From contig CAVERH010000011.1 in assembly GCA_963618065.1 (NCBI GenBank), forward strand, positions 1,315 through 65,314: DNA of 64,000 nucleotides, read 5' to 3'. Both the position numbers and the translations under genes were made by a program. Shown here piece after piece: positions 6,755-29,134 of this stretch (position 1 is the first letter of the stretch; each line of letters starts with the position of its first letter). Origin of the DNA: a bacterium (GTDB lineage Bacteria; Bacillota; Clostridia; Lachnospirales; Lachnospiraceae). A model generated the notes under the pieces. That model ran no database searches. It worked only from the letters and a program-made list of their open reading frames with translations, and was not told the origin of the DNA.

Positions 6755-7544
6755 CAGGATCCTCCGGATTATTTTTTACAGGGTGAAGCAAAGCAATTAC
6801 CGAAGAAATGACGACCGTAAGCAGGATGGTTTTGCTGCCGCTGCTGATTTTGTAAAAGCATGGAAGCCGGTTAAACAGGTAGCTTGCAAGGAAGCCTGAG
6901 AGGATTGCAACCGTAACCGGTGATTCCCGGTATAATACCGGAAGCTTGTCCTTAAAGGTTTTCTTTATGGAAGTCAAAGAAACCATATTCCTGATCTCAG
7001 CACGGATCGGAGGAATGATAATGGCGATAAACATTCCGTAAAGGGCAACGCTTAAGGCACTGACAACACGTAATGGAAGAATGTTGCCGGCAATGACGCC
7101 AAGGGCTGTGCCGATCGACCATCCGGGGATAGCCATGCACATAGCTCCATAGGTATAAAAGGGATTGATTATTCCGGGACGGGCAATGGTAATTCCAAAC
7201 AGTTCATCGGTGATGTCATAGCCAAGTAGCAGACGGTGTCCAATTCCGGTATTCGGAGAGAAACGCTGACTCAATGCGCAGCTCATAAGCAGGTATCGTG
7301 CATTGGTGACCAGCGTCATAATGGCAACCTCAAAATAGGTTGCATTTGCTGCAATTAAAGTAAAAATTGCATATTCTCCTGCAGATGCATTGGTCAGTAT
7401 GCTTGCAAGAAAGCCCTGAAAGGCATTCAGTCCGGCATTGCGGGCAACGATGCCAAGGGAGAAGGACACGGCGAAGTAGCCAAGTCCGATCGGAAGGCCG
7501 TCACGTATTCCTTCCATAAATACTTTTTTGGCTGTTGTGTTCAT
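6741..7544 (-). CDS. azlC: AzlC family branched-chain amino acid permease component
   Basis: Polytopic membrane protein with an AzlC-like N-terminus (FMEGIRDGLPIGLGYFAVSFSLG). The start is taken at the internal ATG (MNTTAKK) preceded by AAGGAT. Confidence 0.8.
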   Translation of the reverse strand: MNTTAKKVFMEGIRDGLPIGLGYFAVSFSLGIVARNAGLNAFQGFLASILTNASAGEYAIFTLIAANATYFEVAIMTLVTNARYLLMSCALSQRFSPNTGIGHRLLLGYDITDELFGITIARPGIINPFYTYGAMCMAIPGWSIGTALGVIAGNILPLRVVSALSVALYGMFIAIIIPPIRAEIRNMVSLTSIKKTFKDKLPVLYRESPVTVAILSGFLASYLFNRLPCFYKISSGSKTILLTVVISSVIALLHPVKNNPEDPDDES

Positions 7545-7642
7545 GATGTATGTTATCCTTTGCGTATTGATTCCGCTTACTGTTATATCACGGTTTGGAA
7601 GTTTACGCAAAGACTTTCTTTGAAGGACTTAAAGGAGAGAAG

Positions 7643-8212
7643 ATGCAGTACGATCAGTTGATTTCACAGTTAGAAGAATTATTGAAAGAAAAGTCCATGC
7701 AGATTATCGGAATTGATGGCCGGTGCGCAAGCGGGAAGACCACGCTTTCCAATCTGCTTGCCGGGAGGTTTCCGGCACGGATTTTTCATATGGATGATTT
7801 TTATCTTCCGGTAGAACAAAGAGTAGTGGGCTGGGAAAAGACGCCCTGTGCCAATATGGATTTTGAACGGATGATTGAAACAGTACTGAAGCCTGCAGAA
7901 AAGGGTGAGACAGTAGCGTATGAGGCCTATAGCTGCCGGGAAAAGCTGCTGCTGCCTCCGGTAGAGCTTACCTGGCAGCCGTTAACTATAGTGGAAGGAA
8001 GTTATTCCCATTATCCGGAGCTTTTACCGTTTTATGACCTGACCGTATTTCTGACATGCAGCAAGGAAACGCAGAGGAAGCGGCTGATTGAGAGGGAAGG
8101 AGAGCGGTATCCGAATTATGAGCGGCTCTGGATTCCGTTGGAGGAAGGATATTACCGGAAGTATCAGGTAGGGGAGCTGGTGGATTACCGGATTGCGACG
8201 GACGAATCGTAA
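7643..8212 (+). CDS. P-loop nucleoside/uridine-kinase-family protein
   Basis: Walker A motif GIDGRCASGKTTLSNLL. The size and layout are uridine-kinase-like. RBS AAAGGAGAG precedes the ATG at 7643. Confidence 0.6.
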   Translation: MQYDQLISQLEELLKEKSMQIIGIDGRCASGKTTLSNLLAGRFPARIFHMDDFYLPVEQRVVGWEKTPCANMDFERMIETVLKPAEKGETVAYEAYSCREKLLLPPVELTWQPLTIVEGSYSHYPELLPFYDLTVFLTCSKETQRKRLIEREGERYPNYERLWIPLEEGYYRKYQVGELVDYRIATDES

Positions 8213-8224
8213 TTAGATTCCTGC

Positions 8225-8253
8225 TTGCATAGGAGGAAATTCCCATTTATAAT
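8225..8253 (+). promoter_or_regulatory. Sigma-A type promoter candidate for the metF operon
   Basis: TTGCAT (8225-8230), a 17-nt spacer, then TATAAT (8248-8253). Confidence 0.5.
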
Positions 8254-8256
8254 GTA

Positions 8257-8390
8257 ATGAGCCTCAGAGAAAACCAAGCGGCTGCAAAGCAGACATTTGG
8301 TTTTCCGGGCTCATTAACGAACATGCATCTGACGAAGTCAGATAGGGAGTGCGAAGCACGGGCATGTGAGTTGCTGTAAGCAGCAATTTT
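8257..8390 (+). promoter_or_regulatory. Structured 5' leader of metF (candidate riboswitch/attenuator, class unassigned)
   Basis: A long hairpin spans 8257-8314 (ATGAGCC..GGCTCAT enclosing GAAAACCAA/TTGGTTTTC). A three-way junction spans 8321-8367 (ACATGC..GCATGT with two GAA-capped hairpins). TTGCTG-TAAG-CAGCAA-TTTT follows at 8371-8390. Confidence 0.35.
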
Positions 8391-8466
8391 GCAAGTTTGC
8401 AAGTGGAATTCGGAATAGTTACCAGAACATGAAAATTGATAATCACAAACACGAAGAGGTAAAACA

Positions 8467-9333
8467 ATGAAAATCACATCCATATTTGAAAAAGAAGAAA
8501 TTACCGTATCGTTTGAGGTGTTTCCACCGAAAACAACCACGAATTATGAAGCGGTGGAAAAGGCAGCGCTCGGCGTGGCAGCGTTAAAGCCAAGTTACAT
8601 GAGTGTGACCTATGGAGCAGGTGGCAGCACCAGAGGATATACGATTAATATTGCAGAGAAAATACAGAAGGAACAGCAGGTAACAACGATTGCCCATCTG
8701 ACCTGTGTTGGTGCCACAAAGGCAGATATTCATGCAGCGCTTGATCAGATGAAGGAGGCTGGCATTGAGAACATTCTGGCACTTCGCGGAGACCGCCCGA
8801 AGGACTTTGAAGGAGATCCGTATATTGATTATCACCATGCCTCCGAGCTTGTCCAAACAATTCGGGAATATGGAGATTTCTGCGTGGGGGGAGCGTGCTA
8901 TCCGGAGGGGCATCCGGATGCGGCAACGAAGAAGGAAGACATTTTGAACCTTAAGAAGAAGGTGGATGCAGGCTGCTCGTTCCTGACGACCCAGATGTTT
9001 TTTGATAACAATATTTTTTATAATTTCTTATATAAAGCACGGGAAGCCGGAATTCTGGTTCCGATCATTCCGGGAATCATGCCGATTACGAGGGCAAATC
9101 AGGTTGCCAATGCCGTACGGCTTTCCGGCTGTAATGTACCGGAGCGGTTCCGCAGTATTGTAGACTGCTTTGGAAACAACCCGGCAGCCATGCAGCAGGC
9201 CGGTATTGCCTATGCAACCGATCAGATCATTGACCTGATTGCGAACGGAGTGAACCATATTCATGTATATTCCATGAATAAGCCCGAAGTGGCAAAGGGA
9301 ATCTGCGACAATTTATCTGCAATTATTCATTAA
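8467..9333 (+). CDS. metF: Methylenetetrahydrofolate reductase
   Basis: The N-terminus SFEVFPPKT, LRGD and the length are typical of MetF. Confidence 0.9.
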   Translation: MKITSIFEKEEITVSFEVFPPKTTTNYEAVEKAALGVAALKPSYMSVTYGAGGSTRGYTINIAEKIQKEQQVTTIAHLTCVGATKADIHAALDQMKEAGIENILALRGDRPKDFEGDPYIDYHHASELVQTIREYGDFCVGGACYPEGHPDAATKKEDILNLKKKVDAGCSFLTTQMFFDNNIFYNFLYKAREAGILVPIIPGIMPITRANQVANAVRLSGCNVPERFRSIVDCFGNNPAAMQQAGIAYATDQIIDLIANGVNHIHVYSMNKPEVAKGICDNLSAIIH

Positions 9334-13858: not shown

Positions 13859-16285
13859 ATGATGAAGAGATGGGCAAGAGCATTATTTCAGCCGGGAATT
13901 CCGCTTGGTGAGAATGGAAAGCGTGTAACGGGAAGTAAGGAACATATTGCACTTTCCAAAGAAGCAGCAAAGGAAGGTATGGTTCTTGTAAAGAATGAGG
14001 ATCAGGTTCTTCCCATTGCCAGAGGGACCAGAGTTGCATTATTCGGAAAGGGAACCTTTGATTATGTAAAAGGAGGTGGTGGAAGCGGTGATGTTACCTG
14101 CGAGTATATCAGGACTCTGTATGATGGTTTGAAGTGTAAAACTGACAAAGTAAGCATATTTGAGGAACTTTGTGATTTTTATCGTGAGGATATAAAAAAA
14201 CAGTATCAGAATGGTGCAGTGCCTGGGATGACGATAGAACCTTCGGTTCCGATGGATCTTTTAAAGAAGGCAGCAGCCTTTACGGATACCGCAATTATCA
14301 GTATCTGCCGTTTCTCGGGAGAGGGCTGGGATCGTACGGCATTTATTGATCCGGAGAATAAGGCAATCTGTGATTCGGAAGTTGAAATGACGAAAAAAGC
14401 AGCCAGCATTTTTGCAAATGGTGATTTCTGTCTGTCAGACGGGGAACAGCAGATGGTTGACCTTGTAAAGGAACATTTTAATAAGGTCATTGTGGTAATG
14501 AATGTTGGCGGCATGGTAGATACCTCCTGGTTTGTGGATGATGATCAGATTTCTTCTGTGTTATTTGCCTTTCAGGGCGGCATGGAAGGTGGACTTGCTG
14601 CAGCGGAACTTCTGTTGGGAGAAGGGAATCCCTCCGGCAAGCTTTCTGATACATTTGCAAAATCACTTCAGGACTATCCTTCCTCGGAAGGCTTCCATGA
14701 GTCAAGGGATTATGTAGATTACGTGGAAGATATTTATGTCGGTTATCGTTACTTTGAGACCATTCCGGGTGCACAGGAAAAGGTAAATTATCCATTTGGT
14801 TTCGGACTTTCCTATACGACATTTGATGTAAAAACATTGGAAGCAGGAGAGAGCCATGGTAATATTCAGGTTCGGGTTCAGGTAACAAATACCGGAAGCT
14901 GTGTTGGAAAAGAAGTGGTTCAGGTATATGTCGGAAAGCCACAGGGAAAGCTTGGAAAGCCTGCAAAGGAACTTGTTGCATTTGAAAAGACAAGACTTCT
15001 TGCAAAAGGAGAATCACAGTTGCTTTACCTGCAATGGAAAATCAGTGATATGGCATCCTTTGATGATCTTGGCAAGGTACAGAAGGCTGCCTATGTTTTG
15101 GAAAAGGGCTCTTATGCTGTTTATGTCGGGAACTCGGTACGGAATGTAGAGAAGCTGGCCTACGAATATGTATTGAAGGAGAATGTTGTTGTGGAACAGC
15201 TTGAAAGCAGACTGGTACCAACTTCCCTTAAGGAAAGAATGCTGGCAGATGGAACCTTTGAAGAGCTTCCTTTGATGCAAGCCAATGACCCGAACGCATC
15301 TGAAATCGGCAAATTAAAAGATGAACAGACCGATGGATTTACACCCGAAGGAAAACTGGTAGAAAGTTATGTGCTCTGGCATGGAATGCATCGAAGCGGA
15401 GAACATGATTTCACGGAGGTCGCAGATGGAACCATTACTATGGAAGAATTCCTGGCGCAGCTTTCTGTGGAAGAGCTGGCCTATCTTCTTGGTGGGCAGC
15501 CGAACACCGGAGTTGCCAATACCTTTGGTTTTGGTAATTTCCCGGAATATGGAATCCCTAATATCATGACAGCTGATGGACCGGCAGGCTTGCGAATTGC
15601 ACCGGAGGCAGGTGTCAATACAACGGCGTTTCCATGCTCTACATTGCTTGCCTGCACATGGAATCCGGAGATTGTGGAACGGATTGGTGAAGCTGGAGGA
15701 GCCGAAGTAAAGGAGAACAATATATCGGTCTGGCTGACACCGGCGATTAATATTCACCGGAGTCCGTTGTGTGGTCGGAATTTTGAGTATTATTCCGAGG
15801 ATCCTTTTTTGACAGCAGAGCTTGCAGGAGCTATGGTGAAAGGAATTCAGTCGAATCACATTGGTGCAACCCTAAAACACTTTGCATGTAATAATAAAGA
15901 AACGAACCGTAAGAACTGTGATTCACGGGTATCAGAGAGGGCAGCACGTGAAATTTATCTGAAGGCTTTTGAGAGAATTATTAAGGAACAAAAACCATGG
16001 GTAGTAATGTCATCTTATAATATTATGAATGGACACAGGACATCCGAATATAAGGAACTGTTGACCGGAGTTCTCCGTGAGGAATGGGGATTCGATGGGA
16101 TGGTAACAACGGATTGGTGGACCTGTGGAGAGCATTACAAGGAAACCCATGCGGGAAATGATTTGAAAATGCCACGTGGATTTGCAGACCGTCTTATGGA
16201 GGCTGTCCGACAGGGCTGTCTTACACGTGAAGAAATGGAAACAAGCGTAGGTCGAATTCTTAAGACGATTCTTAAGATAGATTAA
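13859..16285 (+). CDS. Glycoside hydrolase family 3 beta-glucosidase with permuted domain order
   Basis: The GH3 C-terminal-type domain comes first (VLVKNEDQVLPI, GGGSGDV, FGFGLSYTTF), then an Fn3-like segment. The catalytic N-type domain comes last (KHFACNNKETNR, GMVTTDWW). Confidence 0.9.
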   Translation: MMKRWARALFQPGIPLGENGKRVTGSKEHIALSKEAAKEGMVLVKNEDQVLPIARGTRVALFGKGTFDYVKGGGGSGDVTCEYIRTLYDGLKCKTDKVSIFEELCDFYREDIKKQYQNGAVPGMTIEPSVPMDLLKKAAAFTDTAIISICRFSGEGWDRTAFIDPENKAICDSEVEMTKKAASIFANGDFCLSDGEQQMVDLVKEHFNKVIVVMNVGGMVDTSWFVDDDQISSVLFAFQGGMEGGLAAAELLLGEGNPSGKLSDTFAKSLQDYPSSEGFHESRDYVDYVEDIYVGYRYFETIPGAQEKVNYPFGFGLSYTTFDVKTLEAGESHGNIQVRVQVTNTGSCVGKEVVQVYVGKPQGKLGKPAKELVAFEKTRLLAKGESQLLYLQWKISDMASFDDLGKVQKAAYVLEKGSYAVYVGNSVRNVEKLAYEYVLKENVVVEQLESRLVPTSLKERMLADGTFEELPLMQANDPNASEIGKLKDEQTDGFTPEGKLVESYVLWHGMHRSGEHDFTEVADGTITMEEFLAQLSVEELAYLLGGQPNTGVANTFGFGNFPEYGIPNIMTADGPAGLRIAPEAGVNTTAFPCSTLLACTWNPEIVERIGEAGGAEVKENNISVWLTPAINIHRSPLCGRNFEYYSEDPFLTAELAGAMVKGIQSNHIGATLKHFACNNKETNRKNCDSRVSERAAREIYLKAFERIIKEQKPWVVMSSYNIMNGHRTSEYKELLTGVLREEWGFDGMVTTDWWTCGEHYKETHAGNDLKMPRGFADRLMEAVRQGCLTREEMETSVGRILKTILKID

Positions 16286-16330: not shown

Positions 16331-16379
16331 TTTGGGAAAATAAAGCAAGATGAATAAACTTTTTTGAGAGGGTAAAAAT

Positions 16380-17348
16380 GTGGGGCATTATTTGGGAATA
16401 GATCTTGGTGGAACCAATATAGCAGTGGGTATTGTGGATGAACACAACAAAATCATTGTACGTCGAAATCGAAAAACCAACACGCATCAATCATTTGAAA
16501 GTCTGGTGATGGAAATTGCGATCACGGCCAGAGAAGCTTTAGAATGTGCCGGCTTAAAAGAAGATAATGTAGATTCCGTCGGAATGGGCACACCAAGCTG
16601 TATTAATCCAAAGACAGGAAATCTTGTTAATGCCAATAATCTTGGGTGGATTAATGTACCATTGCACAGAGAAATACAAAAGTACTTCAGCCAGAAGGTA
16701 GCAATCGCAAACGATGCGGATTGTGCAGCATTGGGCGAAGTGATTGCAGGCTCTGCATCCGGATATCAGAATGCAATTATGATTACACTTGGTACGGGTG
16801 TTGGAGGAGGCATTATTCAAAACGGTAAAATTTATAGTGGCGCAGACGGAATGGGATCGGAAATCGGGCATATAAAGCTGATTTATGGAGGAAAAAAGTG
16901 TTCCTGCGGACAGAAGGGATGCTTTGAAGCATATGCCTCGGCAACGGCGCTGATTCAGCAGACAAAAGAGGCAGCATCCCAAAATTCGGAAAGCAGCATC
17001 CATCTGCTTAGTGGCGGAGATCCGGAAATGATAGATGCTAAAACGGTATTTGATGCAGCGCACAGGAAAGATGAGACAGCATTAGAGGTATTGGATCAAT
17101 ATTATAATTACCTGGCAGGAGGAATTTCAACATTGATCACACTCTACAGACCGGAAGTGATTATTATTGGTGGAGGAATCAGTAATCAGGGAGAATACCT
17201 TATCAAACCGCTAAAAGAGAAAATTTATGAACAGACGTTTGCGGCCAAGGAAATCGGTATCCCTGAACTTCGGATCGCATCACTTGGAAATGATGCAGGA
17301 ATTATCGGGGCAGCAAATTTGAAATGTTTGAAAAATAATGGGAGGTAA
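16380..17348 (+). CDS. ROK family sugar kinase (glucokinase-like)
   Basis: LGIDLGGTN at the N-terminus, the ROK zinc motif GHIKL...C.CG..GC.E, and DAGIIGAA at the C-terminus. The start is GTG, 7 nt after GAGAGGG. Confidence 0.85.
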   Translation: MGHYLGIDLGGTNIAVGIVDEHNKIIVRRNRKTNTHQSFESLVMEIAITAREALECAGLKEDNVDSVGMGTPSCINPKTGNLVNANNLGWINVPLHREIQKYFSQKVAIANDADCAALGEVIAGSASGYQNAIMITLGTGVGGGIIQNGKIYSGADGMGSEIGHIKLIYGGKKCSCGQKGCFEAYASATALIQQTKEAASQNSESSIHLLSGGDPEMIDAKTVFDAAHRKDETALEVLDQYYNYLAGGISTLITLYRPEVIIIGGGISNQGEYLIKPLKEKIYEQTFAAKEIGIPELRIASLGNDAGIIGAANLKCLKNNGR

Positions 17349-19201
17349 TGGATATGGAAAACAGAATTGGAATTTGGAGTGAGGATGAAAGCGGATTGCC
17401 GGTATTTGAGTATACAGGAGAGCTTCCTTTCATGGCAGTAGACAGGGATGGAAAGAAAGTGAAATTACCGGAAGATCCGTGGTTTTTGCTCGGAAATTAT
17501 CAGCTCACTTTGTTCACACATGTAAGTGGGGAATATGAATTAATTTCAGGATAGAGATCCTGGAGCAGAATAAATGCAGGAAAAAAGACGAATTCCGGTA
17601 AAAATCATGCAATGATCGTAATAGACGGAAAAGAAATTCCGTTGTGTGGAGCAAATACCATTGCCGGAAACCCGAAGGCATGCAAAAGAAAATTTGGGTG
17701 TGGCTATGCGGTTTATCAATATCATCTTGAGGATGTGGAAGTAAAAAGAACTCTGGCAGTAAAGCCTTCGGAGACAATTGATGGAGGATGTTCTGCATTT
17801 CTTACAACGGTCGAAATTGAGAATCATAGTGACAGAGCCCAAAATATACAGTATGTGGAGAGTATTACGGCACATTTTGTAGAGATTCAGTATCAGCATC
17901 TGGCAGAAGAGAAAAGAAAGATTGCTTATCATTATGAGGAAAATATCGACGAAGCTCAAAATTGTGCAATGGTAAGAATCAGTGGTGTCGCAGAGGATCC
18001 GCTTCTTTGCGGAACACCGTATATGAGATCCTGCTATGATGGCTTTCCGCCAACATTATATGTGAAGGCTCTTTCCAAAGAGGTTAAGGTCCTTATTAAA
18101 AATAGGGAAATTTCGACGGTAAGGGAATGCTGTCTATTGCCGGGGGATAAACTTATCTTTCAGATAATTACAGGTTACTTTTATGAGTACAGTCAGAGTG
18201 GCGTATCTCAGGCAATCGATGAACTGGGGATAAAAAAGGACGAAAACGGCAAATTCTCCAGAGAATGGAAACAGATCCTTCCGACTCTCGAACAGGAAAA
18301 CAATCCGGTGCTCAGGAGGGAAATGCAATGGCATGCGTATGTTCTTGAAGCAATGGCAACATACAGCCATTATTACAGGGAAACCAAAATTCCGCAAGGT
18401 ACCATGGATGATTGCATAGAACGAGGGAAGGCTTTGCTTGATGGTGGAGTAAGGTATCTTGGCGGAACGTGTGAGACTTATGGAAACATTAATGCATCCG
18501 ATTCCCTGTATGCGGTAAAGAAGCTTGTCTTTGAAGATAAAAGGATAACTTTGGAGGAGCTTTGCAAAGCGGTTAAAGCAAATTTTGAAGGTTATGAATC
18601 GATAAGGAAACTGTGTCTTGATTGTGATAAATATGGAAATGATCTTGATACAGCAGATGAAATGGCAAATGATCTGTATGAATATGTTTCTAAAGGAATA
18701 CGAAACCGGGGAATCCGGAAGGGGATGCAATATTTCCTTATCGTAATCAGTAATAATTCCCTGAACACGGAGTGGGGAATAAAAACTGCAGCAAGTCCTG
18801 ATGGCAGATTATCCGGAATGTACATGAACCCGGCAAATAACCCACAGGGCGGCGCAGATAAAAACGGCCCGACAGCGATGCTGAATTCACTTACACGATT
18901 TGATGCAAAATACCATGCCGGATCCGTGCAGAATATTAAGTTTTCAATCGGAATGTTCAACAAAAACCGGGATATCATAGAAACTCTTTTCAAGACTTAT
19001 TTCAAAAAAGGCGGCTGTCATCTGATGGTAACCGTGGTGGATAGTGGAGCACTTGAGGATGCCATGGTTCATCCGGAAAAGTATCCCAATCTGATAGTCA
19101 GAGTGGCAGGGTATTCTGCAGTGTTTGTGAATCTGGATCCTACGGTTCAACAGGAAGTGCTTAGCAGAACCTTGTATGATGAAAGGAATTCCTTGCGATG
19201 A
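17348..19201 (+). pseudogene. Disrupted chimeric ORF: unknown (glycan-enzyme-like) N-terminal part fused in frame to the C-terminal glycyl-radical portion of a glycyl radical enzyme
   Basis: ORFs 17348..17554 and 17612..19201 share one frame and are separated only by a TAG at 17555-17557. From residue M265 of the second ORF (nt 18404) the sequence is typical GRE C-terminus (DDCIERGK, YGND, AASPDGR, GGADKNGPTA, GGCHLMVTVV, HPEKYPNLIVRVAGYSAVF). Nothing upstream resembles a GRE. Confidence 0.6.
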
Positions 19202-20097
19202 ATGAGCTTGATATTTTTGAGATTGAACGGTTTGCCATCCATGATGGTCCCGGAATACGTACGACTGTTTTTTTTCAAGTCTGTGCTTTGAGATGTCAGT
19301 GGTGCGCTAATCCGGAGTCTCATACGGTAGGCAGTCATATCATGTTCTTTCAAAGGCAGTGTGTAGGATGTGGGAGATGTGCACAAGCGTGTCCCAATAC
19401 AGCAGTGGACATGCTCAAAGGAAGATCCAGTATCAACAGAAAAAAATGCATTGCCTGTGGAAAATGTGTAGAAGCATGCCCAAACGGAGCTTTGAAAATA
19501 TCAGGACAAAAAATTACAAATGAGGAACTCTTTGAGATTATTTTAAGGGATAAGGATTATTATGAAACAAGTGGTGGAGGAGTTACAATATCCGGAGGAG
19601 AAGCTTTGCTTCAGATTGAAAAAATGAAAGTTTTTCTTCAAAAGTGCCATAGTGAGAATATAAATACAGCAGTAGAAACCTGTGGCTATGTGCCTGTTTC
19701 TAATGTAAAAACCGCCTTGGAATATATTGATCTGTTTCTGTATGATGTGAAGACACTTGATAGAAACCAATTTGAGAAATATACCGGTGGAAATCTGGAA
19801 ACGGTGCTTGCTTCTTTTGAATACCTGTGCAGGAATGCAGTGGAAAAAGTGATTGTCCGTGTTCCGGTTATTCCGGGCTTTAATGATCATGAGGTTAGTG
19901 CAATCATGGAATATGCAGCATTACATGGAATCAAAGAGATCCATTTGCTGCCTTATCATACCCTCGGCATAGCAAAATATGAGCAGCTTGGCCTGCAATA
20001 TTCCTATCCCGTCACACAGGGATTAGATCCTGAAACACTTCTAAAATATATAGAAGCTGGAAAAAATATGAATATGAAGGTAAAAATCGGTGGATGA
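19198..20097 (+). CDS. Glycyl-radical enzyme activating protein (radical SAM, with two ferredoxin-type clusters)
   Basis: The radical SAM motif is CALRCQWCANPES (CX3CX2C). Two extra clusters are CVGCGRCAQACP and CIACGKCVEACP. The start overlaps the upstream stop as ATGA. Confidence 0.9.
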   Translation: MNELDIFEIERFAIHDGPGIRTTVFFQVCALRCQWCANPESHTVGSHIMFFQRQCVGCGRCAQACPNTAVDMLKGRSSINRKKCIACGKCVEACPNGALKISGQKITNEELFEIILRDKDYYETSGGGVTISGGEALLQIEKMKVFLQKCHSENINTAVETCGYVPVSNVKTALEYIDLFLYDVKTLDRNQFEKYTGGNLETVLASFEYLCRNAVEKVIVRVPVIPGFNDHEVSAIMEYAALHGIKEIHLLPYHTLGIAKYEQLGLQYSYPVTQGLDPETLLKYIEAGKNMNMKVKIGG

Positions 20098-20103
20098 ATA
20101 AGT

Positions 20104-20148
20104 AAGAAACCCGTCAGAGAAGAATTTTAAATTCCTGACGGGTTTCTT
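20104..20148. terminator. Bidirectional terminator between the activase and GH13 genes
   Basis: 14-bp stem AAGAAACCCGTCAG / CTGACGGGTTTCTT. Confidence 0.7.
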
Positions 20149-20177
20149 AATACTACAGTAAGCGATTCGTAGAATAT

Positions 20178-21725
20178 TTACATTGATACAAACACGGCGG
20201 TTCCACCATCAATTGCAATGCCGTTTTCTGTCACAGAAGCATTGCCACCAACGGTATAAAGGATCTCGCCCTTTACATCCGGAACAACCACGTTACGGTC
20301 TGCAGGATGAATGATCACCAGAATTTTTTCTCCGTCACAGGTACGTTCGTAAACGAGCGGATCCTCGTCGGAGCGGAAATGGATCGCAGCCATACTCTGC
20401 AGGGCAGGGTGAGCCATACGGAAAGCGATCAGACGCTTTACCTCACTGTAAAGGGAGGTATCATCTGCCATTTCCTTTTCGGCATTCGGGCGATTCCGGT
20501 CGGGATCTACAGGAACATACAGCTTTTCAGAAGGAGCGGAAGAGAAGCCTGCATTTGCAGAAGTGTTCCACTGCATCGGGGAACGGGAACCGGTACGGTT
20601 ATAGCCGCCCTCTACGGAAGTTAAGTTCTCGACATAGCGCATGCCGATTTCATCACCGTAATAAATGAACGGCGCACCGGGCATGGAAAGCAGGAACGCA
20701 AAAGCAATCTTCATCTCTTCGGGATCGAGGGTACGGGCCAGACGATCCATGTCGTGATTGCCGGATGGAATGCAGATCAGACCTTTGCCGTTGGTTTTTT
20801 CGTAGTTTTCACAGTATTTTGCAACGAATTCCTTCGCGCTTCCTTTTCCACGGCGGGAGAAGTAAGGCTCTTCACAGCGGAACAGATCGTTGTAATGGGA
20901 AGGGCCGAAGTGAAGCAGGAAGTCCATATGGAAGCCACCGATGAGGCTCTTATCCGGTTCACCCCATTCGCTGACCATGGCAGCGGTCGGGAATTCCTCA
21001 TCTAAGAATTCGCGGATGTCCTGCCAGAGTGCGATTGTGCCTTTTCCGTCTACATCATTTTTAACAAGGGAGCCTGCCATATCCACACGGAAGCCGTCAC
21101 ACCCTAAGGAAAGCCAGAAGCGCATAATATTCTTTAATTCTTCACGGGTAGACAGAGGACCCTCGGCATCCATGGGCTGCTGCCACTTTTTCTCCGGATC
21201 CGGCTGATAGAAGCCGTAGTTTAAAGCGGGCTGGTGGGAGAAGAAGTTTACTACACAGGAACCGTCACGATCGGAGATGCCGCGGATGGTTGCCATATTT
21301 TCCGGGGATTCCCATGCACTGTCCGTCCAGACATAGCGGTCGGTGTATTCGTTTCTTTCTGCCTTCATGGATTCCTTGAACCACTTGCAGGTAACGGCGG
21401 TGTGTCCGGGAACGAGGTCAAGAAGGACATGCATGTCTCTTTTGTGTGCTTCTTCGAATAAATGAACGAGATCTTCATTGGTTCCGTAACGGGGAGCCAC
21501 GGTGTAATAGTCCTCCACATCATATCCGGCATCGCCGAAGGGGGACTGGAAGCAGGGATTCAGCCAAAGGGCGGTACAGCCCAGATCTTTAATATAGTCA
21601 AGCTTTTCGATAATTCCGTTAAAATCACCGATACCATCTGCGTTGGTATCGCGGAAGGACTGGGGATAGATTTCATAGAATACGGCGTTGTCAAGCCATT
21701 CGGGTTGTTTTCTTTCTGTACTCAT
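20178..21725 (-). CDS. GH13 alpha-glucosidase / oligo-1,6-glucosidase-like enzyme
   Basis: YEIYPQSFRDTNADGIGDFNGI..LDYIKDLG..LWLNP, GFRVDMA, EW and NHD blocks of the alpha-amylase family. RBS AAGGAGG. Confidence 0.9.
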   Translation of the reverse strand: MSTERKQPEWLDNAVFYEIYPQSFRDTNADGIGDFNGIIEKLDYIKDLGCTALWLNPCFQSPFGDAGYDVEDYYTVAPRYGTNEDLVHLFEEAHKRDMHVLLDLVPGHTAVTCKWFKESMKAERNEYTDRYVWTDSAWESPENMATIRGISDRDGSCVVNFFSHQPALNYGFYQPDPEKKWQQPMDAEGPLSTREELKNIMRFWLSLGCDGFRVDMAGSLVKNDVDGKGTIALWQDIREFLDEEFPTAAMVSEWGEPDKSLIGGFHMDFLLHFGPSHYNDLFRCEEPYFSRRGKGSAKEFVAKYCENYEKTNGKGLICIPSGNHDMDRLARTLDPEEMKIAFAFLLSMPGAPFIYYGDEIGMRYVENLTSVEGGYNRTGSRSPMQWNTSANAGFSSAPSEKLYVPVDPDRNRPNAEKEMADDTSLYSEVKRLIAFRMAHPALQSMAAIHFRSDEDPLVYERTCDGEKILVIIHPADRNVVVPDVKGEILYTVGGNASVTENGIAIDGGTAVFVSM

Positions 21726-21934
21726 AGGTAACCTCCTTTATTTCCTTAGAATTGATTTTCTCTGCTTATAGCGATACAATACTATAATAAACAGGATAAT
21801 TCTACTAAAATTTTAAATCAGACCAAATAGTATGATTTTTTGCATTCCGTGTATGACAATTGGTATGATTTTTTTGTATCGGACAGGTAAACTGAAAGAA
21901 ATGGAATCATGGGTTTATATATGGGGAAGCGACG

Positions 21935-23521
21935 ATGAAATTATTGGATCTTGTAATTGTAGATGATGAACCGATCTTATTAAAGGGTCTGTTAAAGACC
22001 TACGACTGGGATCAGATGGGATTCCAGGTGGTTGGTACGGCATTAAGCGGCGAGCAGGCGATAGACGTGATTCGTGAGAAAAAGCCCGACGTGGTGCTGA
22101 CCGATATCCGGATGAAACAGATGACCGGATTACAGATGATGGATACGATACGGCAGACAGATAAGGAGTGCCTGTTTGTCGTATTAAGTGCGTACCGGGA
22201 TTTTGAGTATGCGAAGGAGGCATGCGATCTCGGTGCGTTTGCTTATCTATTAAAGCCGATTGAGGATGAAAAGCTGCAGGAAACCATGCAGAATGCATAC
22301 CGCACCTGCATGGAGAAGCGGACAAAGGAAGAACGCATGGAAAACTGGGAAAATCTGGTGAAGAAGGATGCGACGAGCTTCCTGCAGGTCATTGTACAGA
22401 AGTATCTGCTCAAGCAGATTTCCTTTGATAAGCTGACCGAGGTGTTTGAGACCGTGGATCAGCCGCTTCAAAAGGAAGACCGCTTTATCACAGTGAACGC
22501 AGACATTGATCTGGCCTATAAGATTACGAATACCCTGGAATATGAGGCAGCACGGTTTGCCCTGAATTCCTTTCTGGAAGAAAAGCTGCGTGAAAGGTTT
22601 GCTTTTTTTAGTCTGCAGGGACAGGGAGAGACTCATGCTTACCTGATCCGCACGAAGGAAAATGTAACGGTGCTTGCCCTGAAGCATCTATTGGAGGAAG
22701 CAAAGGAGGAATTGAAAAGTCCCATCATTGCGTCCATATCCAAGCCGTATAAGGGACTTCCGGGAATCCGGAAAAGCTATGATGAGGCCTGTGAGCTGTT
22801 TGCCATGGCAGGTGAAGCCGCTTCCGGTTCGTTTACCATTTATATGGAAAGTGCTTCACGGTATACCAAAGACCCTTCAGCACCCGAGGAGCAGCAGATC
22901 ACAAATGCACTTCGTAAGAACGATGAAAAGGCCTTGAAGGAAGCCTTTGTACATTTCTTATACACATTGCCTGCGCAGGAAGAGATGCAGCGCCAGAGGC
23001 TCCATACGGTCATGCTTGATACCGAGGTTTTCTTAGAGGAGAGCTATGGCATGTCGGAGGATCTGAAAAAGCAGTTTCAGAATTACTATTCCAATATGCA
23101 GAATTTAAGCGCCTCAAAGGAAGTGGATGTGAGCTATAAGATTCTGCGCCGGGCTGTCGAGGAGCGAAAGAGCTATGCGGAAAGCCATGAGGTAAAGGGC
23201 AGCCGGGAATATATGGCAGAAGCTATGGCTTATATTGATGAGCATTTACAGGAAGAGGATCTTTCGATTGTGGCGGTTGCCATGCATGTCTACTTAAATC
23301 CGGTCTACTTTGGAAGAGTATTTAAGGAAAGCCAGCAGATGTCCTTCAAAAAATACCTGCTGCAATGCCGGATGGAAAAGGCCAAGAAGCTTTTACAGAA
23401 TGGAAATGAAAGCATCGGAGGAATCTGTGAACAGATCGGAATCAGTAATCCTTCTTACTTTTCCCATCTGTTCAAGGAATACACCGGAAAGCTCCCCACC
23501 GAATATAAGAAGGAATGGTAG
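21935..23521 (+). CDS. Response regulator with AraC-type output domain (YesN-like)
   Basis: The receiver domain shows VIVDDEP...DVVLTDIRM. The C-terminal AraC HTH shows NPSYFSHLFKEYTGKLPTEY. Confidence 0.9.
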   Translation: MKLLDLVIVDDEPILLKGLLKTYDWDQMGFQVVGTALSGEQAIDVIREKKPDVVLTDIRMKQMTGLQMMDTIRQTDKECLFVVLSAYRDFEYAKEACDLGAFAYLLKPIEDEKLQETMQNAYRTCMEKRTKEERMENWENLVKKDATSFLQVIVQKYLLKQISFDKLTEVFETVDQPLQKEDRFITVNADIDLAYKITNTLEYEAARFALNSFLEEKLRERFAFFSLQGQGETHAYLIRTKENVTVLALKHLLEEAKEELKSPIIASISKPYKGLPGIRKSYDEACELFAMAGEAASGSFTIYMESASRYTKDPSAPEEQQITNALRKNDEKALKEAFVHFLYTLPAQEEMQRQRLHTVMLDTEVFLEESYGMSEDLKKQFQNYYSNMQNLSASKEVDVSYKILRRAVEERKSYAESHEVKGSREYMAEAMAYIDEHLQEEDLSIVAVAMHVYLNPVYFGRVFKESQQMSFKKYLLQCRMEKAKKLLQNGNESIGGICEQIGISNPSYFSHLFKEYTGKLPTEYKKEW

Positions 23522-23551
23522 TCTTTTAGAAGGGTTACAAGAATTCAGCAT

Positions 23552-25339
23552 ATGAAAATAAAGAAAACAACCTCCGGAATTCAAAGAAAATATCTGAAAT
23601 ATACGATCGGACTTCTTCTGCTTGCCCTGTTTTTGTCAAGCGTGGGAGTCTGGTTTTATATGCGCAATACCATGACGGGAATCGTCACGGATAAATACAC
23701 CTTTATGAATGAAAAGACCGGGATTTCACTCGATACACTGTATCAGAAAACCGAGAAGGTGACAGAAGAATGCATCCTGAACGATCAGGTACAGCAGAGT
23801 CTTAAGGCAAAGCCCATGGAAGAGGTGGCGCGTAACTCCTTAAGTAAATACTTTGCCTATATTGATCTTGACCATGTTTCGGAATACTGCTACGTGGATA
23901 ATAAGAAGAATCTGTATACCCGTTCCTACTCAAAGATTCCCTATCAGTATTTTGAGGACAGCCTGCTGGTAGAACGGCTTGGGGATTCCTATGCCGATAC
24001 CAGATGGTTTGTGACGGAGGATTATCTGTTTGGAACCGGCGAAGAGGCGCTGTTTATCGGACGTAAGGTGCACAGCCTGAATTATGCGCATGAGCCGGGG
24101 TATCTGTTTTTAAAAATGGATTCGGAGTTTTTGCGCAGTCTCCTCACGGAGGAAGAGGATCTGACTGAGGAGGCGGCGATCGGTATTATGGATCCACAGG
24201 GAAGGATCTGTGCGTACTGGTATCCGGAAGGCTTCACTTTATCTGCAGAACAGGAGACTGTTCTGGCAGACTATGCAAAGCAGGAGGGGGCGGGCTCTAT
24301 TGTAGAAAATGAGAAAATAAGCGGCGGCGTGTTATCCGTTTATAAGCAGGAAAAGTGTGGCTTTTCGGTTTTTACCCTTGTGCCGGAGAAGGTATTAAGT
24401 GCCGGATTTGTAAAGGTATTCTGGGTATTGTTTGCAATTTATCTACTGGTAATTGCTATCGCGGTGGTATTAAGTATTTATTTCTCCAACAAATTCACGA
24501 AGCCCATTAAGGAGCTGAATCGAGCCATGACGGAATTTAACGGAGAGGATTTCAGCAGACAGATCCATCTGAATACCAATACCGAGCTTGACCAGATCGG
24601 AAATGCCTATAATAAGATGCTTTCCAATATCAAAGAACTGTTAGAGGAGATCAAAACCCAGCAGAAGGAGCTTCGTACCAGTGAATTAAATATGCTGATC
24701 AGCCAGATCAATCCGCATTTTCTGTATAATACGCTGGACACGATTTACATGCTGGCGAGAATTAATAAAGAAGAAACCACGATGAATATGATCCAGGCTC
24801 TGTCCAAGTATCTGCGGCTTTCCTTAAGCAAGGGAAGCGAGATCGTTACAGTGGGGGATGAGCTGGAAAATGTGAAGAGCTATCTGCAGATCCAGCAGAT
24901 CCGGAATGAAAATCTGTTTACCTATACGGTAGACTGTGAAGTGAATCCGGAAGAGACATGGGTGTTAAAGCTGATTTTACAGCCTCTTGTGGAAAATTCG
25001 ATTAAGTATGGCTTCTGTGAAATTTATGAGGGCGGTCAGATTCGGATTCATATCTATAAGCAGGATGGAAAGCTGATTCTTACCGTTTATAACAGTGGGA
25101 CACCCATTGCAGGAGATATGGCAGAAAAGATTAATGCTTTGAACGGCAGGCCCTTATCGGAAGCCAGAAAGCTGTTTCCGAAGAATGCGAAAAACGGCTA
25201 CGGGGTGAGCAATGTACTGACGAGACTCCGGCTGAAATATGGAGAAGGGGTACGTTTTACTTACCGGGCAGAAGCGGATGGAACAACCTGTACGATCGAG
25301 ATTCCGGGGGAAGGAGAACAGCATGAAGAGAATTTATAG
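23552..25339 (+). CDS. Sensor histidine kinase (YesM/LytS-type: 2 TM, HAMP, His_kinase, HATPase)
   Basis: The N-terminal TM segment, second TM segment, HAMP region, the H-box QINPHFLYNTL, and the ATPase G-box GYGVSNV are all visible. Confidence 0.9.
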   Translation: MKIKKTTSGIQRKYLKYTIGLLLLALFLSSVGVWFYMRNTMTGIVTDKYTFMNEKTGISLDTLYQKTEKVTEECILNDQVQQSLKAKPMEEVARNSLSKYFAYIDLDHVSEYCYVDNKKNLYTRSYSKIPYQYFEDSLLVERLGDSYADTRWFVTEDYLFGTGEEALFIGRKVHSLNYAHEPGYLFLKMDSEFLRSLLTEEEDLTEEAAIGIMDPQGRICAYWYPEGFTLSAEQETVLADYAKQEGAGSIVENEKISGGVLSVYKQEKCGFSVFTLVPEKVLSAGFVKVFWVLFAIYLLVIAIAVVLSIYFSNKFTKPIKELNRAMTEFNGEDFSRQIHLNTNTELDQIGNAYNKMLSNIKELLEEIKTQQKELRTSELNMLISQINPHFLYNTLDTIYMLARINKEETTMNMIQALSKYLRLSLSKGSEIVTVGDELENVKSYLQIQQIRNENLFTYTVDCEVNPEETWVLKLILQPLVENSIKYGFCEIYEGGQIRIHIYKQDGKLILTVYNSGTPIAGDMAEKINALNGRPLSEARKLFPKNAKNGYGVSNVLTRLRLKYGEGVRFTYRAEADGTTCTIEIPGEGEQHEENL

Positions 25340-26624
25340 AAAATTCAGGAAAGGTATGGCGTTCTTTCTTCTGATGCTTCTATGCGGCATGGTAGTTTCG
25401 GGCTGTGCCGGGACGGAGAGTGAAAGCACCGTTGAGGAAGAAAACAATGTGATTTCCATTCCGATTATTTTTACAGTAGATCCGACGACGGGCAGGAAAA
25501 ACAATCAGGAGCTTGCCGATGCATTTAATGAAGCCTATGCGGGGCAGTATTATCTCGATGTGGAATGGGTACTTGAAACGGAAGAGGAATACCGGCAGAA
25601 TCTCAGAAGAATGAATGCAACGGACAGTCTGCCTGCGATTATTTATGATGTATGTACGGTTCCGTCCTTCTACATCATGATGGTGGAAGAGGGGAGGATT
25701 GAAGATCTGACGCCTTATCTGGAGGAGGATCCATCCTGGAAGAATATGATTGAGCCATTTGTACTGCAGGGAAGTACCTATACGGATGGTAAGGTATATT
25801 TGGGACCAATCAGCACATCGGCATTTACCTGCTCCGGAATGTTCTGGAATGAGGAGTTGTTTACCCAGGCAGGAATTGACCACTTCCCGGAAACCTGGGA
25901 AGAATTCTGGGAATGCTGCGATACCTTAAAGGAGCATGGAATCACGCCGCTTGCCCTGCATACGGAGGGAACCGGTTGGGCGCCTATGCTGATTGCAACC
26001 GCAGCGGTGGCAGAAAGCGAAGAGGGTGCAGACTTTATGCGGCAGATGCTGCCGAAAAGCTATGAGAATGAAAGCGGTCTGTATCTTGCTCGGGTGTTGG
26101 AAAGGCTGTTTTCCTATACAACAGAGGATGCGCTTCATGCGGATTATGATGTGGCGTATACGAATTTCTTTTCCGGAAAGGCAGCCATGATTCCGAACGG
26201 GTATTGGATGATCGATCAGATTCCTGAAAACTGGGGAGATGAGGTGCGGTTTTCTTCCTTCCCGGAGAAGACACTGGTGGCATCCCCCGAAACCTTTGGC
26301 TGGGCAGTGATTTCCGGCTATTCCGATGAAGTAAAGGAAGCAGCGGTGGAATTTTTGAAGTTCCGTACGGCATATAATGAACAGGAGAAGGAAACGTTGT
26401 TTGGGCAGGAGCTTTCCGGAAAGCCCCGGGTATTAAAGGATTATCTGAAGGCTTTTTCGGGAGCACAGCAGATTGTCCCCAACTATCAGGTAAAGTGGAA
26501 TTCCATTTTACAGGAAGAGACACTGGGAGTGGCCCTGCCGCTTCTTGCCGAGCAGAAGATCACACCACAGGATTTTGTAAGGATGGCTGATGAAAGTGTA
26601 CAGGAGTTTGAGGACGAGCAGTAA
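25323..26624 (+). CDS. Extracellular solute-binding lipoprotein coupled to the two-component system
   Basis: The lipobox is LLCGMVVSGCAG. The fold resembles a family-1 sugar-binding protein. The ATG at 25323 overlaps the kinase 3' end by 17 nt. Confidence 0.8.
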   Translation: MKRIYRKFRKGMAFFLLMLLCGMVVSGCAGTESESTVEEENNVISIPIIFTVDPTTGRKNNQELADAFNEAYAGQYYLDVEWVLETEEEYRQNLRRMNATDSLPAIIYDVCTVPSFYIMMVEEGRIEDLTPYLEEDPSWKNMIEPFVLQGSTYTDGKVYLGPISTSAFTCSGMFWNEELFTQAGIDHFPETWEEFWECCDTLKEHGITPLALHTEGTGWAPMLIATAAVAESEEGADFMRQMLPKSYENESGLYLARVLERLFSYTTEDALHADYDVAYTNFFSGKAAMIPNGYWMIDQIPENWGDEVRFSSFPEKTLVASPETFGWAVISGYSDEVKEAAVEFLKFRTAYNEQEKETLFGQELSGKPRVLKDYLKAFSGAQQIVPNYQVKWNSILQEETLGVALPLLAEQKITPQDFVRMADESVQEFEDEQ

Positions 26625-26764
26625 AAGCCTCAGGTTTATTTTTTTGCATTTGAGGTTGAATAATTGATAATGAATTTTCACATTTTTTGATAAGATGAGT
26701 ACAGCAAAACAAAGAAACGCACTTTTATGAAGGTGCGTAGTATAAAAGAAATGGGAGGATTTCT

Positions 26765-28159
26765 ATGAAAAATGTAAAACGATGGCTTGCCCTTGGAATG
26801 GCAGCAATAATGACAGCAGGTGTACTTGCAGGATGCGGAAGCACTTCTAATGACCAGACAACAAGTGACAGCACAACGACAGAAACAACTGAAACAACCG
26901 AAGCAGCTGATACTGCAGATGCTTCCGAAGGTGAAGCGGCAACAAGCACCGGAGCAGGATCTGTATATTATCTGAACTTTAAACCGGAGCAGGATGAGCA
27001 GTGGCAGGCACTGGCAAAGGCTTACACCGAAGAGACCGGAGTACCGGTTACCGTTGTAACAGCTGCTTCCGGAAATTATGAAACGACTCTGATGAGTGAA
27101 ATGGGAAAGAGCGGAGCACCGACCCTGTTCCAGGTAAACGGACCGGTTGGACTTGCAAACTGGAAGGATTACTGCTATGACCTTTCCGGATCCGCTGTAT
27201 ACGGCGAACTGACCAGCGAGGATTTCGCATTAAAGGATGGCGACGCAGTATCCGGTATCGCATACGTAATTGAATCCTACGGACTGATCTGCAACAAGAC
27301 CTTACTTGCAGATGCCGGTTATACTATCGACGATATTAAGTCCTTTGCAGATTTAAAGAAGGTTGCGGAAGATATCACAAGCCGTTCTTCCGAGCTTGGA
27401 TTCGCAGCATTTACCTCCGCAGGTATGGACGGCTCTTCCGACTGGAGATTCAAGACTCATCTTGCAAACCTTCCGATCTACTTTGAGTATAAGGAAGACG
27501 GTATCGGATCTACTCCTGCCATCAAAGGAACCTACCTTGATGCATACCGTAATATCTGGGATCTGTATGTAAATAACAGCACCTGCAGTGGCAAGGAGCT
27601 TGCAGCAAAGACAGGTGATGATTCCAGAAATGAGTTCTTAAATAAGCAGGCCGTATTCTTCCAGAATGGTTCCTGGGAATATGGAAACCTGGTTGGCGAC
27701 GGCAAGTTTGCTGATGATGACCTTGCGATGATCCCGATCTACATCGGTGTTGGTGATGAAGCAAATCAGGGGCTTTGTACCGGTACAGAAAACTACTGGT
27801 GTGTAAATAAGGAAGCTTCTGAGGATGACATTCAGGCAACACTTGACTTTATGTACTGGTGTGTAACCTCCGACAAGGGAACTACTTCCATGTCTGATGA
27901 AATGGGATTTGTTATTCCTTTCAAGAGCGCAAAGGAATCTCCGAACTTATTTGTAAAGCAGGACAGTGAATATACCGCAGCCGGCAAGACACCGGTATCA
28001 TGGAACTTCACAACCATGCCTTCTGAGGAATGGAAGAATGGTGTCGGAGCTGCATTAACCGCTTATGCAGCAGATGAAACAGACGCAAACTGGGATGCAG
28101 TTGTAAGTGCATTCGTAGATGGATGGGCAACCGAATATGAGCTTGCCAATCAGCAGTAA
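26765..28159 (+). CDS. ABC transporter sugar-binding lipoprotein (CUT1 family)
   Basis: Lipobox VLAGCGS followed by a Thr/Ser/Glu-rich linker, then a family-1 SBP body. RBS GGGAGG. Confidence 0.9.
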   Translation: MKNVKRWLALGMAAIMTAGVLAGCGSTSNDQTTSDSTTTETTETTEAADTADASEGEAATSTGAGSVYYLNFKPEQDEQWQALAKAYTEETGVPVTVVTAASGNYETTLMSEMGKSGAPTLFQVNGPVGLANWKDYCYDLSGSAVYGELTSEDFALKDGDAVSGIAYVIESYGLICNKTLLADAGYTIDDIKSFADLKKVAEDITSRSSELGFAAFTSAGMDGSSDWRFKTHLANLPIYFEYKEDGIGSTPAIKGTYLDAYRNIWDLYVNNSTCSGKELAAKTGDDSRNEFLNKQAVFFQNGSWEYGNLVGDGKFADDDLAMIPIYIGVGDEANQGLCTGTENYWCVNKEASEDDIQATLDFMYWCVTSDKGTTSMSDEMGFVIPFKSAKESPNLFVKQDSEYTAAGKTPVSWNFTTMPSEEWKNGVGAALTAYAADETDANWDAVVSAFVDGWATEYELANQQ

Positions 28160-28171
28160 GTAAAAGAACCG

Positions 28172-28205
28172 GAATGGGCAGGCAGAAAACACTGTCTGCC
28201 CATTC
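28172..28205 (+). terminator. Intra-operon hairpin after the binding-protein gene (partial terminator or mRNA stabiliser)
   Basis: GAATGGGCAGGCAG / CTGTCTGCCCATTC with one G-T pair, followed by TTC. This position between SBP and permease genes is typical. Confidence 0.45.
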
Positions 28206-28282
28206 TTCATGTAGAACACTTGGTGAAGACGAGCCGAAGGAGAAGTCAGAGCTTAGTGACCGGGTAATAGGGAGGCTATGTT

Positions 28283-29134
28283 ATGGAGAAGGCAATAAAG
28301 AAACATGCAGTTATTTTTGTTCTGCCCACGCTGGCTGCATTTATCATCGGATTTATTGTTCCGTTTGTGGAGGGCTTATACTTATCCTTCTGTAAATTTA
28401 CAACAGTAGGAAATGCGACGTGGGTAGGACTTGCGAATTACCGTGCAGCAATTACGGATACCTCTTTCCAGAGGGCGTTTGGATTTACCGTATTGTTCGC
28501 CGTGGTATCCATTTTAAGTATTAATATTCTGGCATTTGCACTTGCCGTTTTACTGACACAGAAATTACACGGAACGAACATCTTCCGTACCGTGTTCTTT
28601 ATGCCAAATCTCATCGGCGGTATCGTGCTCGGTTATATCTGGCAGATCCTGATTAACTGCGTGATGACGATTTTAGAGCAGCCCTTACTTGCGTTAAATG
28701 CAACTGCAGGCTACTGGGGACTCATTATCCTGATGGGCTGGCAGCAGATTGGTTACATGATGATTATTTACATTGCCGGCTTACAGAACGTTCCGGATTC
28801 CTTAATTGAAGCAGCCGAAATTGACGGAGCAAACCGCCTGCAGACCTTATTTAAAATTAAAGTTCCCATGGTAATGTCTTCCATTACCATTTGTATTTTC
28901 TTAACCTTAACGAATTCCTTTAAGCTGTTCGACCAGAACCTTGCGTTGACTGGAGGGGATCCGAACCATATGACCGATATGATGGCACTGAATATTTACA
29001 ATACCTTCTATGCACGCTCCGGTATGCAGTGGAAGGGTTACGGACAGGCGAAGGCAGTGATCTTCTGTGCACTGGTAATTTTCATTTCCCTGTTCCAGCT
29101 TAGAGCAACCAGATCGAGGGAGGTGCAGCAGTAA
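28283..29134 (+). CDS. Carbohydrate ABC transporter permease
   Basis: Six TM segments and the EAA loop (IEAAEIDGANRLQTLFKIKVP). Confidence 0.9.
   Translation: MEKAIKKHAVIFVLPTLAAFIIGFIVPFVEGLYLSFCKFTTVGNATWVGLANYRAAITDTSFQRAFGFTVLFAVVSILSINILAFALAVLLTQKLHGTNIFRTVFFMPNLIGGIVLGYIWQILINCVMTILEQPLLALNATAGYWGLIILMGWQQIGYMMIIYIAGLQNVPDSLIEAAEIDGANRLQTLFKIKVPMVMSSITICIFLTLTNSFKLFDQNLALTGGDPNHMTDMMALNIYNTFYARSGMQWKGYGQAKAVIFCALVIFISLFQLRATRSREVQQ

Follow-up and report, generated by a model that had tools for sequence, protein, structure and literature searches.

A probable deletion-derived fusion pseudogene joining a GH94-like gene to the end of a glycyl radical enzyme gene, beside an intact activase gene

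We analysed 64,000 nucleotides (nt) of DNA from a Lachnospiraceae bacterium (assembly GCA_963618065.1, contig CAVERH010000011.1, positions 1,315 to 65,314 of the forward strand; hereafter the window, with positions counted from its first letter). The reading frame at 17348-19201 of this window joins the front of a GH94-like protein to the radical-bearing C-terminus of a glycyl radical enzyme (GRE). An original prediction, made from the sequence alone, had offered two explanations for this chimera: either two unrelated genes became joined by a deletion, with a fresh pseudogene as the result, or a glycyl-radical module was retained as a spare part similar to GrcA/YfiD. Our results point strongly to the first. 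The element is very probably a fusion pseudogene that arose from one deletion next to an intact GRE activase gene, in the course of ordinary gene decay, and the fusion would be without function. This explanation agrees with the intact parents of both halves on a related locus, with a single gap of 5,093 nt between that locus and the window, with a junction shared by another assembly and with a nonsense codon in the window strain.

We obtained 80 loci from a scan of species-representative genomes. In the comparison of syntenic loci, both uninterrupted parents were found on a contig of 9,298 nt (CAVJLN010000086.1, here L010), which carries six intact open reading frames (ORFs) in the order ROK (322 aa), GH94-like protein (736 aa), DUF3502 solute-binding lipoprotein (512 aa), NanE-like epimerase (253 aa), GRE (782 aa) and activase (299 aa). 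Two blastn blocks connect it to the window: positions 387-2457 of L010 match window 16342-18413 with 90.4% identity, and positions 7541-9298 match window 18404-20161 with 95.6% identity; in addition, L010 3-298 corresponds to the end of the GH3 gene of the window. The window is collinear with L010 except for the single gap, i.e. 5,093 nt that are present in L010 and absent from the window. The window sequence at the junction is GGTACC followed by ATGGATGATTGC; the corresponding sequences are GGTACAATTTATGATTAT in the left parent and ATTCTGATGGATGACTGC in the right one. Although the two blastn blocks share 10 nt of the window (18404-18413), the parents have only ATGAT in common, and the true microhomology at the breakpoints is at most ~5 nt.

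All this resembles known in-frame fusion pseudogenes generated by deletion, in which a single deletion between genes on the same strand, with short or no microhomology, removes catalytic parts of both genes, a nonsense mutation follows and intact orthologues are found in relatives. Indeed, both parents are intact and in the same synteny in a close relative, a single gap interrupts the otherwise collinear flanks, the fusion has lost both the GH94 catalytic domain and the Cys loop of the GRE, and the window strain has a TAG at codon 69. Nothing essential differs from such pseudogenes; the case stands out only by its 3' part, the radical-bearing GRE domain, which still lies beside its activase.

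The synonymous divergence (dS) between the window (16342-20161) and L010 differs on the two sides of the breakpoint, being ~0.33-0.47 on the left (ROK and GH94-like part) and ~0.14-0.15 on the right (GRE part and activase), which suggests a recombination mosaic or different histories of the two halves.

The roughly 350 upstream codons had been described as lacking GRE similarity and as resembling the N-terminus of a large glycan-active enzyme, and both observations proved correct. Pfam gave no match in the first 350 aa of the read-through translation. When a large protein collection was searched with residues 1-352, we found P0001, which is the longest ORF of the frame itself, and ~20 proteins that are 31-54% identical to the query. 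Several of the latter contain PF17167, the GH94-superfamily catalytic domain ('cellobiose phosphorylase'). In all ~20 homologues, '...ETKIPQGT' runs on into 'IYDYxWGxHASARD...'; the window instead continues with 'MDDCIERGK', which in GRE homologues comes after '...FLFTSIL'. Because of these switches from GH94-like to GRE sequence, we place the junction at nt 18403/18404. The 736-aa parent has the PF17167 domain at residues 365-653 (2.8e-12) and aligns remotely to cellobiose phosphorylase from residue 353 onward (E ~1e-3). Judging from these alignments, the 352 upstream codons are the N-terminal, non-catalytic part of this GH94-like protein. Compared with the GH94 phosphorylases (cellobiose, cellodextrin and chitobiose phosphorylases), the parent is a remote superfamily member without a characterised close relative, and the window retains only residues 1-352, which lie ahead of the catalytic domain, have no Pfam match and do not include the (alpha/alpha)6 fold.

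The closest non-self homologue of this N-terminal part, P0002 (460 aa, from an ENA contig of 5,563 nt; 54% identity over ~290 residues), continues into LysM repeats and not into a GH94 catalytic domain, and represents either another architecture or another truncation or fusion of the N-terminal domain.

The downstream part is the C-terminus of a GRE, as had been predicted. Homology to GREs begins exactly at the ATG at 18404 (MDDCIERGK). In the read-through translation, Pfam detected positions 521-633 of the 647-position PFL-like profile and a complete Gly_radical domain within aa 350-594, the latter (PF01228) matched over positions 2-106 of 106 with E = 3.6e-26. The radical motif RVAGYSAVF is encoded at 19100-19126, with the Gly codon at 19109-19111. 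The 265 residues align to the final third of GREs with solved structures (in choline TMA-lyase, for example, to residues 531-790 of 792, E = 8e-47) and to positions 521-782 of 786 of the model TIGR01774, with 195 bits against a cutoff of 678. The parent GRE has Cys422 (FGC422TEF) and Gly753. The fusion, which retains parent residues 518-782, keeps Gly753 and loses Cys422: the thiyl radical Cys loop of the parent lies 96 residues upstream of the retained part, inside the deleted segment, which bears out the claim that this loop is not encoded here. Of the features of a competent GRE, the window copy has the Gly motif and an adjacent radical S-adenosylmethionine (SAM) activase; it has neither the Cys loop nor the complete ten-stranded barrel of a protein of ~750-850 aa. 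It belongs to no enzyme family and is a remnant.

A conserved family of short or split GREs was considered as well, prompted by the fact that the best matches of the C-terminal query were all 200-460 aa long, some of them on long contigs. We rejected it, since these sequences contain the Cys loop (YVPFGCTEF) and their loci encode GREs of ~770-780 aa in the DNA; the short calls arise where a contig ends, where a scaffold has an N-gap (L003) or where a 1-nt frameshift interrupts the gene (L006-L009). The same 1-nt frameshift breaks the orthologous GRE in L006 (6817-9083) and L007-L009, four Logan contigs from different runs. It sits just after '...RIALKVC', at about codon 353, and is either a further, independent case of pseudogenisation of the GRE gene or an error made systematically in assembly. 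In L018, the activase is split in a similar way.

The distribution of the junction was followed in a tblastn comparison of the six L010 proteins with 90 fetched loci and the window. While the GRE of the cluster is near-full-length and in a single frame in ~73 genomes (Clostridia, Erysipelotrichia and Bacteroidia), residues 1-355 of the GH94-like protein abut residues 518-782 of the GRE only in the window and in two further loci, L001 and L090. L001 is the Logan assembly of SRR13434604 and is 100% identical to the window over 5,703 nt (window 16987-22689), a range that spans the junction. L090 comes from a different NCBI assembly (GCA_963623315.1) and was traced via P0143, a 615-aa member of the 90% cluster of P0001; across the 12,860 nt of window 16342-29201 it shows 99.55% identity, with 58 substitutions, no gaps and an identical junction. 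A conserved two-part family with its own Cys loop would have contradicted the pseudogene explanation, but only one further genome (L090) has this architecture, and it has no Cys loop either. In JGI metagenome contigs, both the exact junction 37-mer and a degenerate pattern encoding PQGTMDDCI gave zero matches. Another candidate for a second chimera, L021, in which query residues 3-615 matched within 1,885 nt, was rejected: its GRE is an intact ORF of 802 aa, accompanied by an activase and, downstream, by the beginning of a GH94-like gene.

Since L001 and L090 carry the same junction, it is not an artefact, and the deletion is older than the separation of the window strain from that of L090. 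We conclude that the junction is real and that the deletion is lineage-specific and recent. That assembly or binning merely brought two separate genes together is next to impossible. The window does come from a draft or metagenome-type assembly, and the ATGAT motif is common to both breakpoints; however, it takes far more than a 5-nt overlap to mislead a k-mer assembler, an independent assembler (Logan) reproduced the sequence across the junction, and a second NCBI assembly has the same junction although it differs by 58 substitutions.

The description of 17348-19201 as an in-frame chimera was right in one respect: the region is a single reading frame of 617 codons. It is not one ORF, as an in-frame TAG at codon 69 had been overlooked, and mechanical ORF calling yields two ORFs of 68 and 529 aa (Table 1). 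This TAG, which had been missed, strengthens the pseudogene interpretation. A recoded codon was considered and rejected, because the orthologous codon is CAG in L090 and L010. L090 has the same junction but CAG at codon 69, and its fusion frame is open over 615-617 codons. Therefore, the nonsense mutation is younger than the deletion and specific to the window strain.

The native start of the fusion at 17348 keeps a GGAGG Shine-Dalgarno sequence just upstream, and translation from it should stop after 68 codons in the window strain. No recognisable Shine-Dalgarno sequence was found before the internal ATG at 17612, and the ATG at 18404 is preceded only by AAGG four nucleotides upstream, which is not a good one. 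A search for an internal promoter that could serve a product from 18404 or 17612 revealed no notable promoter-like site near 18404 and nothing convincing otherwise. Because of the TAG at codon 69, the weak start signals at 17612 and 18404 and the lack of a promoter-like site, the GRE-derived radical domain is probably translated poorly or not at all in the window strain.

The differences between the window and L090 are unevenly spread. The 58 substitutions are concentrated in three short patches (17029-17102, 17548-17695 and 20493-21048) with nearly none elsewhere, a pattern as expected of imported homologous-recombination tracts, and the TAG lies inside one of them. This dense patch of 148 nt (17548-17695) contains 20 differences including the TAG. 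Since the window, L090 and L010 are roughly equally divergent from one another there, the patch looks like a recombination tract.

The pairwise ratio of nonsynonymous to synonymous divergence (dN/dS) between the window and L010 was 0.115 for ROK, 0.013 for codons 1-68 and 0.162 for codons 70-352 of the GH94-like part, 0.086 for the GRE remnant and 0.129 for the activase. These low values in every segment (0.01-0.16) indicate that most of the divergence arose while the genes were functional, and hence that the deletion is recent. All eight amino acid differences between the GRE remnant and L010 (8/8) are at positions that are variable among 71 other homologues. Between the window and L090, the GRE part has just two differences (T534I and one synonymous substitution), too few for a dN/dS of the period after the deletion.

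Several observations speak against a decayed locus or limit its reconstruction. The GRE-derived part and the activase are free of degenerative changes, and the whole fusion frame is open in L090; judged from the sequences, there may be selection for some residual role. Furthermore, from the 64 kb in view the activase can be called only a possible 'orphan'. Finally, L010 is a relative and not the true ancestor, and its two flanks are unequally divergent from the window, for which reasons we infer, and do not read directly, the ancestral gene content between the breakpoints.

We propose the following course of events. The ancestral locus would have contained the same six genes as L010, with a GH94-like protein of 736 aa, a solute-binding lipoprotein of 512 aa, a NanE-like protein of 253 aa, a GRE of 782 aa and an activase of 299 aa following ROK. 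A single deletion of ~5.1 kb by illegitimate recombination, between breakpoints sharing at most ~5 nt (ATGAT), would have removed the GH94-like catalytic domain, the binding protein, the epimerase and residues 1-517 of the GRE including the Cys loop. Codon 352 of the GH94-like gene would have been joined to codon 518 of the GRE gene in frame by chance (1 in 3). This would have destroyed the sugar-utilisation cluster, with a fusion product that could be neither a phosphorylase nor a GRE. L090 would still represent the stage of the open fusion, whereas the window strain would later have gained the CAG-to-TAG change at codon 69. ROK and the activase are still intact, the activase either owing to how recent the deletion is or because a further GRE encoded elsewhere depends on it. 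If so, the window documents the loss of a GRE-dependent sugar-utilisation cluster in one lineage.

The fusion might instead be a functional new protein kept by selection, for example a carbohydrate-binding GH94 N-terminal domain tethered to a radical domain and acting as a regulator or radical sink. We regard this as very improbable. In its favour, the parts are in frame behind the native start with its GGAGG, the frame of 615-617 codons is open in L090 and the breakpoint lies at the boundary between the GH94-like N-terminal part and the catalytic domain. However, an accidental join is in frame in one case out of three, the nonsense codon of the window strain shows that the full-length fusion is dispensable, and there is no conservation beyond one lineage. 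In addition, the GRE fragment forms an incomplete barrel, which, given the architecture of GREs, is unlikely to fold alone.

The second explanation of the original prediction was that the retained glycyl-radical module works like GrcA/YfiD, with the activase installing the radical and the module docking on an oxygen-cleaved GRE encoded elsewhere. This claim gained no positive support, and we consider it very unlikely. A spare part of this kind is just as doubtful whether it is produced as the whole fusion or initiated internally (at 17612 or 18404), and there is similarly little chance that the fusion or an internally initiated C-terminal fragment, radicalised by the activase, is a spare domain or radical buffer for a paralogous non-PFL GRE elsewhere. 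In favour of a spare part, the Gly motif, the whole Gly_radical domain and the translationally coupled activase are all intact. The PFL activase is known to accept GrcA and even short peptides with the motif, which also fits. Moreover, three GrcA models (TIGR04365, NF008341 and NF038360) detect the last ~60-70 residues, but their scores of 55.2, 58.9 and 65.1 bits are far below the cutoffs of 170, 145 and 158 and do not exceed what the intact parent GRE itself reaches. The architecture argues against a spare part as well: the GRE piece has 265 aa including a partial barrel, inside a frame of 529-617 aa, whereas GrcA proteins have ~80-130 aa. The same deletion destroyed the local cognate GRE, the internal starts have neither a good Shine-Dalgarno sequence nor a nearby promoter-like site, and the architecture occurs in just two near-identical genomes while it is absent from ~73 related genomes and from the JGI metagenome contigs. 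According to a review (PMC13450708), formate lyases are the only enzymes for which spare-part proteins are known. If a spare part did exist here, it would be the first outside the formate lyases, caught at birth from a deletion.

The likeness to GrcA/YfiD consists in a C-terminal glycyl radical domain without the Cys loop, which in the window adjoins an activase. Unlike GrcA/YfiD, the remnant is much larger, is fused to unrelated sequence, is the product of a recent deletion and not a conserved stand-alone gene, fails the model cutoffs and has no cognate GRE known to remain. Under the preferred explanation of a fusion pseudogene, the window offers a dated, breakpoint-resolved case in which a stand-alone glycyl-radical domain beside an activase arose in a single step, and such a one-step product is the raw material that a GrcA-like spare part would need. 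It is also a warning for annotation: neither the 529-aa 'PFL-like / Gly_radical' ORF P0001 nor its 615-aa sibling P0143 is an enzyme, and both are remnants.

Table 1 Features of the fusion frame and the adjoining genes in the window
Feature	Position	Strand	Remarks
Intact ROK-family sugar kinase, first gene of the ancestral cluster	16380..17348	+	Pfam ROK 4.2e-72; 93% aa identity to the ROK of L010
GH94-like codons 1-68, ended by the nonsense codon	17348..17554	+	98.5% aa identity to residues 1-68 of the GH94-like protein of L010
In-frame TAG, codon 69; CAG (Gln) in L010 and L090	17552..17554	+	C-to-T nonsense mutation, window strain only
GH94-like codons 70-352, N-terminal domain and linker, without the catalytic GH94 domain	17555..18403	+	
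Longest gene-caller ORF in the window strain, 529 aa (P0001), internal ATG start	17612..19201	+	
Deletion junction, ...CCGCAAGGTACC joined to ATGGATGATTGC...	18396..18413	+	
GRE remnant, parent residues 518-782: end of the PFL-like barrel and glycyl radical domain	18404..19201	+	
Intact GRE activase, radical SAM CxxxCxxC and two-ferredoxin insert	19198..20097	+	TIGR02494 335 bits, cutoff 174; 96% aa identity to the activase of L010

Both genes adjoining the fusion overlap it. The TAA stop of ROK overlaps the ATG of the fusion (TAATG), with GGAGG just before, and the ATG of the activase overlaps the upstream stop (ATGA). The activase is complete and coupled to the frame, as had been stated, with a TIGR02494 score well above the cutoff (Table 1), and is possibly orphaned. 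Among those large ORFs of the window that were scanned, no other GRE was found.

The parent GRE on L010 has PflD (PDB 8ID0) as its best solved relative (E = 1e-71 over residues 19-773) and is also distantly related to the B12-independent glycerol dehydratase (1.7e-70). 8ID0 is a 1,5-anhydromannitol-6-phosphate lyase. The parent scored below every NCBIfam equivalog cutoff, and the PFL2-3 subfamily model gave 332 bits against a cutoff of 678. Its loop, GC422TE424, has the Cys-x-Glu pattern typical of dehydratase and isomerase GREs, and the same spacing is given in a review for PflD (C431/E433; PMC13450708). The parent is like the sugar-phosphate GREs of the PflD/YbiW type (8ID0, 8ID7; 1,5-anhydrohexitol-6-phosphate C-O lyases/isomerases) in this loop and in its position among sugar-phosphate genes (ROK, NanE-like and GH94-like), but the relationship is distant, and the window copy, i.e. 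the last 265 residues without the Cys loop, is not such an enzyme.

L010 is titled 'Bacteroidaceae bacterium' despite 90-96% DNA identity to the window, and the nearest relatives of its GRE (82-86% aa identity) are in metagenome-assembled genomes of Oscillospiraceae, Ruminococcus and Acetatifactor. This discrepancy may be due to mis-binning, to a wrong label or to lateral transfer.

The search for the parents exposed a widespread and apparently uncharacterised GRE cluster in gut and rumen anaerobes. It is located at L010:424-9234 and also occurs in L011-L020, L026, L031 and L036-L087, usually in the order ROK, NanE-like, GRE (~780 aa, GC-T-E loop), activase, (HAD hydrolase) and GH94-like. The cluster is kept in ~73 species-representative genomes from gut and rumen, which belong to Clostridia, Erysipelotrichia and Bacteroidia. 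A literature search for this GRE cluster, with ROK, epimerase and phosphorylase or with N-acetylmannosamine-6-phosphate, found nothing relevant. The cluster looks like an uncharacterised sugar-phosphate GRE pathway. In view of its ROK kinase and NanE-like epimerase, a candidate substrate of the GRE is a hexose or N-acetylhexosamine derivative in phosphorylated form.

Upstream of ROK, the window encodes a GH3 glycosidase (13859-16285, + strand) with permuted domains: the GH3 C-terminal domain (aa 41-319) comes first, followed by an Fn3-like domain (352-426) and the GH3 N-terminal catalytic domain (565-802).

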